Of a DNA stretch of 37,176 bases, positions 5,432 through 36,332 are shown piece after piece. Source of the DNA: a virus. The notes under the pieces were generated by a model. It searched no databases. It had not been told where the DNA came from and was given only the letters and a program-made list of their open reading frames with translations. The stretch is taken from the IMG/VR virus record IMGVR_UViG_3300017992_000055; one strand, given 5' to 3'. Both the position numbers and the translations under genes were made by a program. Each line of letters opens with the position of its first letter. The stretch's first letter is position 1.

Positions 5432-5503
5432 GTGGCTGGAGGGATTTGAACCCTGCTCCTTCAGCGCCACAAGCTGACGTGCTGCCTGGTACACCACAGC
5501 CAC
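5432..5503 (-). tRNA. tRNA-His (GTG)
   Basis: Hand-fold: acceptor GTGGCTG/CAGCCAC, anticodon stem TCAGC/GCTGA, loop TTGTGGC, T-loop TTCAAAT. Confidence 0.5.
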
Positions 5504-5505
5504 AG

Positions 5506-5576
5506 TGGCCCCACTAGGAATCGAACCTAGACCTGACGGTTAAGAGCCGCCTGCTCGACCTTCGAGCTACGGAGCC
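5506..5576 (-). tRNA. tRNA-Lys (CTT)
   Basis: Anticodon loop CTCTTAA, T-arm TAGG-TTCGATT-CCTAG, D-arm GCTCGAAGGTCGAGC. Confidence 0.55.
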
Positions 5577-5597
5577 AATTTTGTTCATATGATCAAG

Positions 5598-5670
5598 ATC
5601 CGCCACACGGAGTTGAACCGTGTCCTCCGGCTTACCATGCCGGGCTCGTACCAGTCCGAGCTCTGGCGGA
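5598..5670 (-). tRNA. tRNA-Thr (GGT)
   Basis: Acceptor TCCGCCA/TGGCGGA, anticodon stem CCGGC/GCCGG, loop ATGGTAA. Confidence 0.5.
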
Positions 5671-5683
5671 AAACAGCCCTAAG

Positions 5684-5754
5684 ATCCGAGGGCAGGAATC
5701 GAACCCGCACCTGCTGAGTACGAAACAGCTGTTCTGCCGTTAAACTACCCCGGA
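5684..5754 (-). tRNA. tRNA-Thr (CGT), tentative
   Basis: T-arm GCGGG-TTCGATT-CCTGC; anticodon loop TTCGTAC on an imperfect stem. Confidence 0.35.
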
Positions 5755-5757
5755 TCA

Positions 5758-5859
5758 TCAGCGGAAGAGTATCCAAAACATGCCCAACACCACGATCCCA
5801 ACAATGACATCGCGCGCTACGTCAGGCCAGGTGGTGGCCTCCGCAAGCAACATTTCCAT
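5758..5859 (-). CDS. small hydrophobic peptide (33 aa, MEMLLAEATTWPDVARDVIVGIVVLGMFWILFR) lying between tRNA genes
   Basis: AAGGAGG ribosome-binding site 7 nt upstream of the ATG; single transmembrane-like segment. Confidence 0.25.
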   Translation of the reverse strand: MEMLLAEATTWPDVARDVIVGIVVLGMFWILFR

Positions 5860-5882
5860 GACAAACCTCCTTTGTTAGTCAG

Positions 5883-33337: not shown

Positions 33338-35097
33338 GACTGGTCTCCTTTGGTGGGAGTTGAATGATAGGTTGCTGCCGGCGCCATTTCATTGAAGCGT
33401 CTCAGCAGCGTGTCCTTCATTATACGCGCCCAGTCATTCTCAGGTCCAGAGGGCTCTTGGTCAATTTTCTTGTCAAGTTCGTCGAGAGTAAGTCGGCCGA
33501 TAAGTGCATCAAGTATCGGCGAACGTCCTTCGAGCTCCGAAAGTCGTATAAATTCCTGTGCTTCCGAGATGTCTCGGGGCACTGTGTCGTGGGTGGGAAA
33601 CGTATCGGGCTCGGAAGCCCCTCCTTGCCCAGGCGGCGTCACGGGCGGGTCAACAGGCGGTACGACAGGCGGATCTGTGGGCGGTTCGATGGGCGTAACA
33701 GGCGGCAAATCAGGCAGTTTTGGCGCAGGCTTGCCGCGGAACCAGCAGAACGCCTTGTAGATACCAAAGCCGAGCGCCAGCAATCCGCCACCACCTGCCG
33801 ATCCTGTCAGTAGCCACATGAGCGCCTGCTGCACCGACGGCTTTACCATATCCCAGTTTGACGGTTCGTCCGGCTCGGTTACCGTGGGCGGCGGATCGTT
33901 ATTTGTCGGCGGCTCTACAGGCGGCGTAACCGGAGGGTCAACTGGCGGCGTAACCGGAGGGTCAACTGGCGGCGTAACTGGGGGTTGCACAGGTGGTTCG
34001 ACCGGCGGCTGTACAGGTGGCGTAACCGGAGGCGTAACTGGCGGTTCAACAGGAGGTTCAACAGGCGGTTCAACCGGTGGCACCACTGGCGGCACTACAG
34101 GCGGTGGCTCAGCTGGCGGCGCAACTGGTGGCGTCACTGGTGGCACTACAGGCGGTGGCTCGACCGGCGGTGTCACCGGAGGCGTGACAGGCGGCTGTAC
34201 AGGTGGCGTAACCGGAGGCTCGACCGGGGGCGTAACCGGAGGCGTGACAGGTGGCGTAACTGGGGGCACGACAGGCGGCTGTACAGGCGGCTGTATTGGC
34301 ACCAGTGGCGGCCGCGGCTTTGGCGGCTGCGGGTACGGCGGGAGAATGAACTTCAACAGCGCACGCACACGCGGAAAGTAAGGTCCGCAGCAGCAGTTAC
34401 CGTCAGTGCCGGTGATCAACCCTACGACTTCACCGCGCGACGTGTAGATCGGTCCGCCGCTCATGCCGCTGATTGCCGGCCCTCGGAACTCGATGACCGA
34501 GAGCGTGCGCCCTTGATCGAACGATAGCCATTTGCTGAACGTCCCCTTTGTGACGCGGTATGTAGTATTCATCGCCCAGCCGGACGCCCAATATATCTCG
34601 CCTTGCCTGGGCGGGCCTTTTGCGAAGCGCACCGGCTTGATACCCGGATCGTCGATCTCGACGACGGCTACATCATAGAGATGGTTGTAGCGCAGCATTC
34701 GTGCCTTGAGCATCTTGCCGTTGATCAGCGTGACCGTCACAACGGCCCCAGGCTTGTAGCCATGGGCGCAGGTGATCACGTGCGCTTTACCGTCCTTCTG
34801 TGCTGCAATAAAGCCGCTGCCGGCCAGTTCGCCGAATGCTACCTTGACCACCTGTTCGCAGGGTGGTGCTGCTGGAAGTGCTGGCGGCGCTGGTGCGGCC
34901 CAGGACTGCGATGGCGATGCGCGCCATTGGGTTTCGTGCGGCAGCTGCATCAGCAGCCCGCGGTAATCCTGCCGGCTAGGCGAATTGCGCTCTTCCCAGG
35001 GAACTACTTCATAGATGTCTACAGAACGGGGCTGGCCCGCAGCTACGGTTGGCAGCAGTAGGCATGCCAACAGGCAGAAAAGCGTACAGCATCTCAT
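33328..35097 (-). CDS. secreted trypsin-like (S1) serine protease with a roughly 200-aa PPVx proline-rich stalk, a C-terminal transmembrane anchor and a cytoplasmic tail
   Basis: Signal peptide MRCCTLFCLLACLLLPTVAAG, with an AAGGAG ribosome-binding site upstream; catalytic His in TCAHGY and Asp in DVAVVEID, and a GMSGGP Ser motif; about 50 repeats of PPV(T/E/Q/D); transmembrane segment ALMWLLTGSAGGGGLLALGFGIYKAFCWF. Confidence 0.6.
   Translation of the reverse strand: MRCCTLFCLLACLLLPTVAAGQPRSVDIYEVVPWEERNSPSRQDYRGLLMQLPHETQWRASPSQSWAAPAPPALPAAPPCEQVVKVAFGELAGSGFIAAQKDGKAHVITCAHGYKPGAVVTVTLINGKMLKARMLRYNHLYDVAVVEIDDPGIKPVRFAKGPPRQGEIYWASGWAMNTTYRVTKGTFSKWLSFDQGRTLSVIEFRGPAISGMSGGPIYTSRGEVVGLITGTDGNCCCGPYFPRVRALLKFILPPYPQPPKPRPPLVPIQPPVQPPVVPPVTPPVTPPVTPPVEPPVTPPVQPPVTPPVTPPVEPPPVVPPVTPPVAPPAEPPPVVPPVVPPVEPPVEPPVEPPVTPPVTPPVQPPVEPPVQPPVTPPVDPPVTPPVDPPVTPPVEPPTNNDPPPTVTEPDEPSNWDMVKPSVQQALMWLLTGSAGGGGLLALGFGIYKAFCWFRGKPAPKLPDLPPVTPIEPPTDPPVVPPVDPPVTPPGQGGASEPDTFPTHDTVPRDISEAQEFIRLSELEGRSPILDALIGRLTLDELDKKIDQEPSGPENDWARIMKDTLLRRFNEMAPAATYHSTPTKGDQSCQ
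33600..34320. repeat. 12-bp-period tandem repeat (consensus about ACCGGAGGCGTA/GGTGGCGTAACC) encoding the PPVx stalk
   Basis: Visible periodicity in the sequence; the ORF in the alternate frame reads GGSTGGVTGG... Confidence 0.6.
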
Positions 35098-35176
35098 CGG
35101 GGACTCCTTTGCTGAGAGACGTGCATATTCTCTCATCAGACACCGACGGAGTGGCGCTGTCAAGATCCTTGGGAAG

Positions 35177-35248
35177 TGGTAGCCCTGTGAGTCGAACACA
35201 GCACAGCGCGGTTATCAGCCGTGCTTGGGCAACCGGCCCTCGACTACC
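35177..35248 (-). tRNA. tRNA-Ile (GAT), tentative
   Basis: Acceptor GGTAGTC/GGCTACC, anticodon arm CACGG-CTGATAA-CCGCG, T-arm CTGTG-TTCGACT-CACAG. Confidence 0.4.
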
Positions 35249-35316
35249 ATGGCCCTGGGCCCGGAGGCCCAGGGAGGACTTTCCATTATTTGGGATTGTC
35301 CGTTTCTCGTCCAGAC

Positions 35317-36204
35317 CTATCGGCGTCCGCCCGGCTGAGCGTTTGCCTGCGTCTCAATCGACTGCTGCAGCGTGGCCAGGGCCTGACGCTGCGAGGAGGC
35401 CTCGACAGCCGACGTGGCGATACCGCGGGCATCCTCGCGCGCTGTGGCGAGTTGTGCCTCGACGTTCTCCAGCTGCTTCTCCAGTGCGCCAATACGGGCC
35501 ATCAGCGCCTGCTGTTCGGCGTTCGCCAGCTGCGCTGCGGCTTCGGCGTCCTTCTTGAGCATGGCCTTCTCGTGGGAGAACGCCTGGCCCAGCGACTTGG
35601 TGACCTCGGCCTTGGCCGTCTCGACGGCCTCCTCGATCTCGGCCGGGAGGTTCTCGACCTGAGCCTCGAGATCGGTCATCTTCGTTTCGCGCTCTTCCAC
35701 GGCCTCGATGCGCTCGGCCAGGGACTTGGAAACGTCTTCCATGCGGATGCGCTCCTTGCGCTGCCGCTCCTCAGACTCCGCTTCGAACGCCGTGCGTGCG
35801 CGGTCGTTGCGCTGCTGCCGATCGTAATCGTGCTGCTCCTGTTCGCGAGCCCACGCTTCGTCGCGCTCGGCCTGCTCGTCCTGCCACTCCTTGCGGCGCT
35901 TCCGAGACTTGTCCTTCGCGTCTTCCTCGGCCTCGTCGACCTTCTTCTTGATCTCGTCGAGGGTGTCTGCCTGAACCTCGATGTCGTGGATGTCCGCCAA
36001 CTCCTCTTTCCGCGCCCCAATGGCCGTTTCCAGATTGCGAAGCTCCTCGATTTTCTCGGTCATGGTGACGCCGAGCGCCGCTAACGTACCTTGCACGTTG
36101 GTCTGCACAGTTCCGACCTGGTCAAGCACTTTCTTGACGTCGGATTCCGACACGGCCTTGAGAGCCGCGTCCACGTCGGTTTTCTTGCGACGTGTTGCTG
36201 CCAT
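35317..36204 (-). CDS. coiled-coil protein (E/K/R-rich, 295 aa)
   Basis: Long heptad-like charged repeats; GGAGAG ribosome-binding site. Confidence 0.45.
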   Translation of the reverse strand: MAATRRKKTDVDAALKAVSESDVKKVLDQVGTVQTNVQGTLAALGVTMTEKIEELRNLETAIGARKEELADIHDIEVQADTLDEIKKKVDEAEEDAKDKSRKRRKEWQDEQAERDEAWAREQEQHDYDRQQRNDRARTAFEAESEERQRKERIRMEDVSKSLAERIEAVEERETKMTDLEAQVENLPAEIEEAVETAKAEVTKSLGQAFSHEKAMLKKDAEAAAQLANAEQQALMARIGALEKQLENVEAQLATAREDARGIATSAVEASSQRQALATLQQSIETQANAQPGGRR

Positions 36205-36226
36205 TCAGCACTCTCCTATAGAGACG

Positions 36227-36251
36227 AAAAAAGGCGCCCGACGTGGGCGCC
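36227..36251 (-). terminator. rho-independent terminator (minus strand)
   Basis: Hairpin GGCGCCC-ACGTC-GGGCGCC followed by T6. Confidence 0.55.
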
Positions 36252-36256
36252 TAAAG

Positions 36257-36332
36257 TAGCGGGGGTCGGATTTGAACCGACGACCTGGAACGTATGAAGC
36301 TCCTGAGCTAGACCAGACTGCTCTACCCCGCG
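36257..36332 (-). tRNA. tRNA-Met (CAT); C1-U72 mismatch
   Basis: Anticodon stem GGAGC/GTTCC, loop TTCATAC, D-arm GAGCAGTCTGGTCTAGCTC, T-arm GTCGG-TTCAAAT-CCGAC. Confidence 0.5.

Follow-up and report, generated by a model that had tools for sequence, protein, structure and literature searches.

A tRNA island with a putatively complete decoding set in an uncultured jumbo phage

Two described phages carry tRNA complements of the kind discussed here. The Xanthomonas jumbo phage XacN1 has 56 tRNA genes covering all 20 amino acids (PMC5852040), and the cultured Microbacterium phage Big4 (ON637770, 192 kb) has ~60 tRNA genes on one strand. In phage T4, the homing endonuclease SegB is embedded in the tRNA cluster (PMC2330249, PMC13096335), and long co-oriented tRNA arrays with homing endonucleases also exist in bacteria (L-arrays; PMC8421152). 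Here, we describe an array of tRNA genes at positions 5431-36332 of IMGVR_UViG_3300017992_000055, analysed as a stretch of 37,176 nt that we call the window and to which, as a whole, all positions refer. Based on the gene calls, the genome context and the comparison with related contigs, we consider it probable that this region forms the tRNA island of a jumbo phage, uncultured and ~226.5 kb in size, that is, a complete decoding set that would be co-transcribed with protein genes, processed by the host and reshuffled by HNH endonucleases.

tRNA content, phage source and decoding capacity

ARAGORN in default mode called 38 tRNA genes between 5431 and 36332, all 38 on the minus strand, and the same calls, none with an intron, were obtained when introns were allowed. 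The chance level was set with 20 dinucleotide-preserving shuffles of the window, on which the default mode gave a single call in 20 windows (~0.05 per window). Rfam/Infernal supports 35 of the 38 genes, of which 31 reach the gathering score and the other four (Arg-ACG, Ser-GGA, Cys and Trp) were found in E-value mode, while Thr-GGT, Ser-GCT and Ile-GAT have no Rfam match and were called by ARAGORN only; orthologues of Thr-GGT and Ile-GAT are present in a related phage. A first-pass annotation of this DNA had claimed about 40 tRNA genes, all on the minus strand, and had named a far lower count by automated predictors as what would speak against it; the 38 calls agree with the claim on both points. 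The relaxed ARAGORN threshold added five candidates, four of them on the minus strand, at a rate of ~1.4 calls per shuffled window, so that each extra candidate needs independent support. With the three elements that have such support, Ser-CGA, Ile-TAT and a Tyr-GTA element, the total comes to 41 genes with 40 anticodons, and redundancy is almost nil, as CAT is the only anticodon occurring twice. The plus-strand relaxed call at 2115-2191 is probably due to chance, and two others (5958-6029 and 12824-12908) stay uncertain because of the same chance level. No tRNA was found across the 12.7 kb past the last gene (His) or the 9.8 kb past the first (Met).

The window also encodes a large terminase subunit (2741-4636, plus strand, convergent with the array; Pfam GpA_ATPase 1.3e-10), a phage marker that shares 22-33% identity with the annotated terminases of large cultured phages (tblastn). 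Two independent ENA assemblies contain contigs, of 226,517 bp (ERZ27256796, k141_2629452) and 226,601 bp, that encode proteins of the window as well, and so do several Logan contigs, which indicates an uncultured jumbo phage of ~226.5 kb as the source. The phage has a GC content of 58.7% and a GC content at third codon positions (GC3) of ~0.71-0.72; ~54 kb of the ~226 kb genome was fetched and examined. Megablast of 20 kb of the window against 50,697 phage records gave no nucleotide match, while 12 IMG/VR loci have terminases 76-80% identical to that of the window. A search of 185,579 species genomes with the terminase returned no relative and no hint of the host. Two of the Leu tRNAs, used as queries, match annotated actinobacteriophage tRNAs, which is a weak host hint only. 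That the region might be a bacterial or plasmid array of the L-array type, and not phage DNA, is suggested by the existence of such long co-oriented arrays with homing endonucleases, but is scarcely credible here: the array adjoins a phage terminase on 226 kb contigs, among the genes identified around it are the terminase, HNH endonucleases and PHROG families, the 54 kb examined showed no bacterial core genes, the relatives are viral contigs of IMG/VR, and the terminase of the window has no relative among the species genomes searched. Bacterial L-arrays are, furthermore, dense and located on chromosomes or plasmids (PMC8421152), whereas the present array lies on a phage contig, with ~40 open reading frames (ORFs) between its tRNAs over 31 kb.

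The broad anticodon set on which the first-pass annotation had based its argument proved wider than claimed. By standard wobble, the 40 distinct anticodons read all 61 sense codons, as checked on 48 window genes (9,094 codons, GC3 0.72), and 77% of the codons of these genes are matched by a phage tRNA in Watson-Crick manner. Codons that are rare in the phage are served as well (relative synonymous codon usage of 0.13 for TTA, 0.26 for AGG, 0.40 for AGA and 0.43 for TCA), with dedicated tRNAs for the rarest ones, i.e., TTA (16/9094), AGA, TCA, CTA and ATA. Because the coverage includes rare codons, the set looks like a full decoding set and not like a patch for a few of them. The lineage used as comparator (contigs L017 and L022) has a GC3 of 0.62-0.64 and ~33 tRNAs, against a GC3 of 0.71 in the window, and lacks mainly G34/C34 isoacceptors that the window carries, so that the repertoire does follow composition. 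This difference, amounting to Lys-CTT, Val-GAC, Pro-CGG, Pro-GGG, Arg-CCG, Ser-GCT, Leu-CAG, Leu-GAG and Ala-GGC, could point to pure codon-usage compensation, in which the phage keeps only the tRNAs for those of its common codons that the host serves poorly. Selective compensation predicts neither the coverage of all 61 codons nor the dedicated tRNAs for the rarest ones, and we regard it as rather unlikely; a complete replacement set fits better.

A complete decoding set would not free the phage from the enzymes of its host. CCA is encoded by none of the tRNA genes, and no aminoacyl-tRNA synthetase, CCA-adding enzyme or RNase was recognized among the scanned window proteins or in the Pfam lists for ~54 kb of the contig, so the tRNAs would still depend on the host for processing, CCA addition and charging. 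We propose that the tRNAs would be excised from the transcripts by the RNase P of the host together with a 3' endonuclease, for instance RNase Z, and that the CCA-adding enzyme and synthetases of the host would complete and charge them. The set would then keep the GC3-rich phage genes translated whatever befalls the host tRNA pool, be it codon mismatch, host shut-off or cleavage by defence nucleases; phage tRNAs are known to counter tRNA-cleaving defences (PMC13096335, PMC12673091). Independence from the host tRNA pool, as the first-pass annotation had suggested, is plausible in this sense, judging from the anticodon set.

The 3' trailers of the array are nearly uniform. The discriminator base is followed by C74-T75 in 37 of the 38 default calls, in all four relaxed calls on the minus strand, in the Tyr element and in the 3' half of a YrlA-like element (both described below). 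The exception is tRNA-His (5431-5503, minus strand), which obeys the rule once its first G is taken as G-1, pairing with C73. For this gene, the ARAGORN register gives U8, has no G-1 and violates the C-T rule, while the G-1:C73 register regains C74-T75 and loses U8 and one acceptor pair. Among the relatives, the full C74-T75 is found in 15/15 tRNAs of L017, 22/23 of L022 and 5/6 of L194, and T75 alone in 15/15, 23/23 and 6/6, respectively. C74 is universal also in Big4 (43/43) and in the 70% GC contig L168 (25/25), and the invariant T75 is specific to the clade of the window. The rule is not an artefact of the caller, as ARAGORN calls tRNAs lacking C74 elsewhere. RNase Z cleaves trailers starting with CC or CCA poorly (PMC7479834); a C-U trailer would keep one C yet avoid the CC motif that blocks this enzyme, and C74 may either be retained in the product or aid the docking of RNase P. 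The near-invariant N73-C-U trailer offers a clean natural signal for studying the 3' processing of CCA-less tRNAs.

Organization and growth of the array

The tRNA genes alternate with ~40 ORFs over 31 kb, transcription running in the order of descending coordinates, and the confidently called genes stand singly or in runs of up to five, in line with the earlier description of single genes and small runs between protein genes. Many ORFs start 7-30 nt past a tRNA 3' end with a strong AAGGAGG-type ribosome-binding site. It had also been noted that ORFs abut or overlap tRNA ends, and this holds for ORF stops, which lie at -15 to +6 nt from a tRNA 5' end in ~10 cases. The apparent overlaps of ORF starts with tRNAs (-43 and -31 nt), on the other hand, are probably artefacts of choosing the longest ORF, because good Shine-Dalgarno and ATG starts sit just downstream of the tRNA 3' ends. 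Strong terminator-like hairpins follow the Met (36252-36232), Ala-TGC (25246-25216) and His (5429-5414) genes, and we infer that these hairpins delimit three or more units in which tRNAs and ORFs are transcribed together.

The minus strand carries three HNH homing-endonuclease-like ORFs, each of which runs 10-15 nt into the following tRNA gene. The first encodes 189 aa between the two Gly tRNAs (10162-10731; PHROG HNH down to 5.8e-22), its stop overlapping Gly-TCC by 15 nt; the second encodes 123 aa (20994-21365; PHROG HNH 2.6e-26), its stop overlapping the 5' end of Pro-TGG by 10 nt; and the third encodes 126 aa (36323-36703; PHROG HNH 2.5e-23) and overlaps the 5' end of tRNA-Met by 10 nt. 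Two cassette replacements distinguish the window from contigs that are 99.7-99.9% identical to it. The segment 10001-10862, which holds the first HNH ORF, is replaced in L001 (17261-18539) by a different 1.3 kb segment with an additional tRNA-Arg (CCT) gene and an ORF of 242 aa that is unrelated and lacks a Pfam match. The segment 36279-36703 is reduced to only ~77 bp in L004 (9850-9926), from which the third HNH ORF is absent. Two of the three HNH ORFs thus lie in segments present or absent among nearly identical contigs, as is characteristic of homing endonucleases, and homing activity is predicted. Besides, the Lys, Pro, Gly, Ser, Gln and four of the Leu genes are mutual nearest relatives (70-85% identity), which points to duplication with anticodon change. 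We propose that the array would have grown by duplication and anticodon change and been reshuffled by homing endonucleases.

Such a history raises the question of benefit. Under a largely selfish accumulation, the tRNAs would be carried and multiplied by homing endonucleases and duplication with little gain for the phage, and the three HNH genes abutting tRNAs, two of them marking strain-variable cassettes, the paralogous isoacceptor families and the strong variation in tRNA number among relatives (over the 10 kb following the terminase, the window has 19 tRNAs and relatives have 2, 11 or 15) would all agree with it. We nevertheless hold it to be improbable, given that 41 genes with 40 anticodons leave almost no redundancy (only CAT occurs twice), that complete codon coverage is unlikely to arise from drift, that the order of genes is shared with a lineage in which protein identity is only 50-80%, and that stems evolve by compensatory changes.

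Several observations weigh against a co-transcribed, complete and host-processed set maintained for its function. A promoter scan was only mildly enriched in one half (12 against 5.2 +/- 2.6) and not enriched in the other. The search for enzymes and tRNAs reached ~54 of the 226 kb, and more of either may be encoded elsewhere in the genome. Furthermore, the relatives holding only two tRNAs in the 10 kb after the terminase have terminases 76-80% identical to that of the window, so that a large set appears dispensable for this type of phage.

The genes of the array, all on the minus strand, are given here in the order of transcription, with Rfam bit scores, and were called by ARAGORN in default mode unless stated otherwise. 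The tRNA-Met (CAT) at 36256-36332 (53.1 bits) has a 1:72 C.U mismatch and is possibly initiator-like; with a promoter-like TTGACA-18-TAAACT at 36381-36352 and the hairpin after it, it appears to be its own transcription unit. It is followed by tRNA-Ile (GAT; 35176-35248; ARAGORN score 108.6, no Rfam match, orthologue at 3392-3463 of L022), tRNA-Asp (GTC; 32126-32199; 45.6 bits), tRNA-Trp (CCA; 31895-31968; clan match, 29.3 bits), tRNA-Asn (GTT; 31820-31891; 64.6 bits), tRNA-Glu (TTC; 31633-31705; 46.2 bits), tRNA-Gln (TTG; 31475-31546; 47.2 bits) and tRNA-Gln (CTG; 30924-30995; 45.9 bits). The tRNA-Thr (TGT; 29923-29995; 55.1 bits), which lies inside the YrlA-like element, precedes tRNA-Glu (CTC; 29469-29543; 64.0 bits), tRNA-Ala (GGC; 26385-26459; 62.0 bits), tRNA-Ala (TGC; 25279-25350; 54.9 bits), with its strong terminator-like hairpin, and tRNA-Pro (TGG; 20927-21003; 63.7 bits). 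In L022, a tRNA-like gene with an 8 nt anticodon loop ('CAGG') lies just upstream of Glu-CTC (7151-7226, plus strand; ARAGORN 101.9); no counterpart of it was found in the window.

Downstream of the Tyr element lie the five Leu-type genes of the earlier list, all confirmed by ARAGORN and Rfam and all of class I: GAG (17641-17715; 43.8 bits; 75 nt, 5 nt variable loop, A73), CAG (17563-17637; 39.3 bits; 75 nt), TAG (17401-17474; 60.2 bits; 74 nt), TAA (16426-16500; 41.8 bits; 75 nt) and CAA (16247-16321; 45.3 bits; 75 nt). Among them stands tRNA-Ser (CGA; 17478-17559; class II, G73, loop CTCGAAA), misread as Phe-AAA by ARAGORN in relaxed mode. A Rfam clan match (33.2 bits), an acceptor identical to that of Ser-GGA and an orthologue called Ser-CGA in L022 (16608-16693) support this gene, so that the four Ser tRNAs counted by hand were correct. 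Further on, we find tRNA-Phe (GAA; 15269-15341; 57.7 bits), tRNA-Cys (GCA; 14511-14581; clan match, 40.2 bits), tRNA-Arg (ACG; 14204-14275; 43.2 bits in E-value mode), tRNA-Val (TAC; 13756-13831; 61.5 bits) and three more class II tRNA-Ser genes, TGA (13200-13283; 32.5 bits), GCT (13113-13195; ARAGORN score 113.8, no Rfam match) and GGA (12625-12709; 34.2 bits in E-value mode). An uncertain class II-like element with A73, possibly degenerate, lies between the last two (12824-12908; ARAGORN relaxed only, 96.0); it has a 6 nt anticodon loop (TTCGTA), a T loop TGCAAAT and a trailer that obeys the C-T rule. The syntenic element of L022 was considered as its orthologue and rejected, the alignment being poor and unconvincing.

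The remainder of the array comprises tRNA-Gly (GCC; 10794-10866; 49.5 bits), tRNA-Gly (TCC; 10104-10176; 54.8 bits), tRNA-Arg (CCG; 9928-10000; 59.9 bits), tRNA-Arg (TCT; 9846-9918; 53.9 bits), tRNA-Pro (GGG; 9147-9221; 67.8 bits), tRNA-Pro (CGG; 7078-7152; 60.7 bits), tRNA-Val (GAC; 6901-6975; 58.5 bits), a probable tRNA-Ile (TAT; 6270-6340; ARAGORN relaxed only, 90.5) and an elongator-type tRNA-Met (CAT; 6197-6269; 51.3 bits). The Ile-TAT gene, earlier listed as possible, is plausible, as it shares 86% identity over 50 nt with 13950-13998 of L017, where a full-score Ile-TAT lies in the same position upstream of Met-CAT. The array ends with an uncertain, degenerate 'Ala-AGC' element (5958-6029; ARAGORN relaxed only, 94.0) that has two acceptor mismatches and no homologue among the relatives in which one was looked for, tRNA-Lys (TTT; 5882-5953; 62.1 bits), tRNA-Thr (CGT; 5683-5754; 57.2 bits), tRNA-Thr (GGT; 5597-5670; ARAGORN 103.6, no Rfam match, orthologue at 12835-12904 of L017), tRNA-Lys (CTT; 5505-5576; 56.3 bits) and tRNA-His (GTG; 49.1 bits), with a terminator-like hairpin directly after it. 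The near-complete isoacceptor list of the first-pass annotation was therefore close to correct; it had overlooked Gly-TCC and Gly-GCC and left Tyr without an assignment.

Interleaved with the tRNAs are genes of modification-type enzymes (4633-5346, 6341-6889, 7723-8388, 9218-9838, 25351-26427 and 26466-27251, all on the minus strand) that may serve glycan or nucleotide modification, namely a sulfotransferase, a methyltransferase, a cytidylyltransferase, a nucleotide-diphospho-sugar transferase, a NodZ-like fucosyltransferase and a radical SAM protein. A Clp N-terminal-domain protein (Clp_N) and a trypsin-like protease of 589 aa (581-623 aa depending on the start call) are encoded within the island at 15373-16020 and 33328-35097 (minus strand), respectively. 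In mid-island lies the gene of an 845 aa protein with a major-vault-protein (MVP) shoulder and repeat domains (21469-24006, minus strand). Homologues of this MVP-like protein with ~40% identity occur at 67 metagenomic loci, several on contigs of 50-470 kb, and in metagenome-assembled genomes (MAGs) of Myxococcota, Cytophagales and others, including contigs of 1-3 Mb; as a clue to the host, an identity of ~40% to such varied MAGs is uninformative. A DUF7873 protein (30098-30862, minus strand; Pfam E = 3e-92) is encoded directly upstream of the YrlA-like element; PDB and NCBIfam searches with it gave no informative match. An anchor search with a 260 aa ORF led only to a distant 340 kb phage without tRNAs nearby.

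Atypical tRNAs and tRNA-like elements

The one element of the array that would surprise a tRNA specialist is the non-canonical tRNA-Tyr (GTA; 18166-18254, minus strand; loop CTGTAAA, A73), which is not called by ARAGORN and was detected with the Rfam tRNA-Sec model (29.3 bits). It can form an 8 bp acceptor and, in its T arm, a 4 bp stem, and it has the canonical Tyr anticodon loop CUGUAAA and A73 followed by C-T-T. It lacks the D arm that a cloverleaf has between positions 10 and 25: only 8 nt separate position 9 from the anticodon stem, and these pair with the variable region. The resulting long-range helix of 7 bp, CCUUUCG of the D region with CGUAAGG of the variable region, encloses the anticodon hairpin and leaves a bulge of 8-13 nt.

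Homologues of the Tyr element were found in L022, in L214 (a Logan contig reached via a neighbouring ORF) and in L013, with a nearly identical copy in the closely related L014. The L013 homologue was detected, at 60.9 bits, by a covariance model built from the window, L022 and L214. In the alignment of the four lineages, 96.9% of the cells pair, and 11 pairs show double changes, the unusual helix contributing three; no shuffle out of 500 reached any of these measures, and the paired fraction in slid controls is 48-61%. Because the alignment was fitted to the model, the counts are somewhat inflated, but L013 had no part in deriving the structure. The CUGUAAA loop and A73 are invariant across the four lineages, the acceptor, anticodon and T stems covary, and in all four the element lies in the Leu cluster and is the sole Tyr decoder seen. 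In phages that carry the MVP-like gene and are more distant, the Tyr tRNAs are of the ordinary class II type. An alternative fold proposed by RNAalifold, with a GTTC/GAAC helix and a 7 bp anticodon stem, was discarded, as its distinctive helices show no covariation and one pair is broken in L214. A loose 14-base pattern for the element gave >100 chance matches and was dropped; tighter patterns returned only the known comparator contig and an AT-rich chance match, L215.

Among known non-canonical tRNAs, the Tyr element resembles the D-armless mitochondrial tRNAs of the mt-tRNA-Ser(AGY) type in having no D hairpin, and the 8/4 allo-tRNAs in that an 8 bp acceptor and a 4 bp T stem can form (PMC7609411). 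All four lineages can form the eighth acceptor pair (G8-C) and the 4 bp T stem, but the eighth pair never varies. The serine identity of allo-tRNAs (G73 and a long variable-arm hairpin) is not found here, where A73 is present and the long-range helix takes up the variable region. A helix of the D region with the variable region that encloses the anticodon hairpin is a topology not described in the review of non-canonical tRNAs, which lists no phage case (PMC7609411), and a paper from 2024 states that all known bacterial tRNAs are cloverleaves (PMC11551756). If charged and decoding, the Tyr element would be a natural exception to that statement, and bacterial ribosomes, EF-Tu and TyrRS would accept a natural tRNA without a D hairpin. 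The variable arm of tRNA-Tyr is where the PtuAB nucleases of retron-Eco7 and Septu cleave, and these defences are countered by phage tRNA-Tyr genes whose variable loops are altered (PMC13096335, PMC12673091). By analogy, the rewired tRNA may be a Tyr decoder that escapes nucleases aimed at the variable arm of tRNA-Tyr and, if active, would offer a concrete test of whether phages remodel tRNA architecture against tRNA-cleaving defences.

The Leu tRNAs depart from convention as well. According to the standard review, tRNA-Leu has a variable arm that is long in every organism except animal mitochondria (PMC9976931), a textbook rule that the five Leu tRNAs of the window contradict: none of them has the long arm and the ~85 nt of a class II tRNA-Leu, and all five are 74-75 nt long with a variable loop of 5-6 nt and a weak D stem of 2-3 bp. 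They retain A73, A14, GG in the D loop and a TTCGAAT T loop. Class I Leu tRNAs also occur in L013, L017, L022, L168, L185 and Big4, and Leu-TAA resembles annotated short tRNA-Leu genes of Microbacterium and Curtobacterium phages, while the low-GC phage L195 has normal Leu tRNAs of 82-85 nt. The LeuRS of E. coli requires A73 and contacts of the D and T loops, not the long arm (PMC9976931). As the long arm is not needed and A73 is kept, the short Leu tRNAs are plausibly still charged by a bacterial LeuRS, by analogy with the E. coli enzyme. In L168 (SXGT01029245.1, 70% GC), a distant phage contig, 25 tRNAs surround an MVP-like gene, and the Leu tRNAs are short and the Tyr tRNA is a normal class II one.

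A third unusual structure encloses tRNA-Thr (TGT). The element at 29864-30056 (minus strand) matches the YrlA family of Y RNAs (Rfam RF02553) with 29.3 bits, below the gathering score of 69, and tRNA-Thr (TGT) appears in the alignment as an insertion of 85 nt. Its upstream part corresponds to the 3' half of a tRNA, with the stem strand GGUGA, a 5 nt variable loop, a T arm, CCCCACA, A73 and CUU, and its downstream part to the 5' half, with UGUGGGG, UA, a D arm, G and UCACC; GGTTCC/GGAACC and GCGCAT/ATGCGC form the outer stems. The same arrangement, with compensatory changes, is found in L022 (~6640-6880, plus strand), where the match to RF02553 is partial (21 bits only). All 21 core pairs form in both lineages, and the three variable pairs all show double, compensatory changes. 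The element thus has what defines YrlA, a permuted tRNA-like domain (T arm, acceptor-like stem and D arm) on a long terminal stem made by the RNA ends. It differs from YrlA in that the acceptor-like stem is capped not by a small loop but by a complete tRNA-Thr gene (85-95 nt). The authors of the YrlA study noted that tandem tRNAs can mimic YrlA (PMC4201824); unlike such mimics, the two halves here are permuted and pair with each other around a complete tRNA. The YrlA family occurs in mycobacteriophages, and reported YrlA genes lie within 4 kb of a Ro60 gene (PMC4201824), whereas no Ro60/TROVE gene was found within ~25 kb of the present element (precomputed Pfam lists, ~54 kb around it). The element was found in no further lineage, and the weak Thr-TGT of L013 has no element wrapped around it. 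We tentatively conclude that a Y-RNA-like permuted tRNA wraps tRNA-Thr (TGT) in two lineages. If tRNA-Thr (UGU) were excised, the remainder would be a tRNA mimic in two pieces, its acceptor end open. A functional link with the adjoining DUF7873 gene was considered and rejected, as DUF7873 is conserved clade-wide, including in lineages without the YrlA-like RNA.

The odd elements of the array, i.e., the Tyr-like element, the YrlA-like halves, 12824-12908 and 5958-6029, could alternatively be decaying tRNA pseudogenes. ARAGORN in default mode calls none of them, and the last two are mismatched, have no alignable orthologues and fall within the false-positive rate of the relaxed mode. Decay of the whole group is nonetheless quite unlikely. 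The Tyr-like element is kept in four lineages as the sole Tyr decoder, with an identical CUGUAAA loop, the 11 compensatory double-change pairs and not one of 500 shuffles comparable to it. The YrlA-like element keeps its 21 core pairs in two lineages, with compensation in all three variable pairs, and its order, the 3' half before the 5' half, cannot come from simple disruption of a tRNA gene. Taking these elements together, we put forward as a tentative possibility, with limited confidence, that this clade has re-engineered its class II tRNAs, with Leu tRNAs turned into class I, as in some actinophages, a functional non-cloverleaf tRNA-Tyr that has no free variable arm, owing to the pairing of its D-region strand, and could thereby escape nucleases of the PtuAB type, and a Thr-wrapping RNA that would yield a tRNA mimic.

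Comparison with known tRNA-rich phages

In its combination of tRNA genes and homing endonucleases, the array recalls T4 and T6, where a homing endonuclease in the phage tRNA cluster is tied to the inheritance or rearrangement of that cluster (PMC2330249, PMC13096335) and a phage tRNA-Tyr has been implicated in countering a tRNA-Tyr-cleaving defence (PMC13096335). SegB is a GIY-YIG enzyme, whereas the ORFs of the window belong, by sequence, to the HNH family.

The closest match in layout is Big4, in which small ORFs and an HNH gene stand between the tRNAs of a single strand, much as in the window. Both phages have full isoacceptor sets (Pro x3, Thr x3, Leu x4 and Arg x4 in Big4) and short tRNA-Leu genes (74-81 nt in Big4), and C74 recurs in both, with CCA mostly not encoded in Big4. 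On the other hand, Big4 packs its ~60 tRNAs, many of them duplicates, into ~19 kb, whereas the window has 41 nearly non-redundant genes over 31 kb, with larger auxiliary genes between them; position 75 is mostly G or C in Big4 and an invariant T in the clade of the window, and the Tyr tRNA of Big4 is annotated as a short tRNA of 74 nt. No DNA similarity was detectable between the window and the Big4 genome, and the terminases are unrelated at close range. The complement of XacN1 is likewise complete; its tRNAs lie in long terminal repeats, while the window gives no evidence of repeats and represents a different lineage (PMC5852040).

Overall, with Big4 and XacN1 as precedents, the phenomenon is already known, and the array of the window comes from a lineage without a close cultured relative. 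It would thus be one more jumbo phage with a complete decoding set, in an uncultured and otherwise unrelated lineage, and gives an indication of the way in which such sets arise, through duplication with a change of anticodon and through homing-endonuclease cassettes. What it adds to these known systems lies in the details, namely the fold of the Tyr element, the N73-C-U trailer and the short Leu tRNAs.

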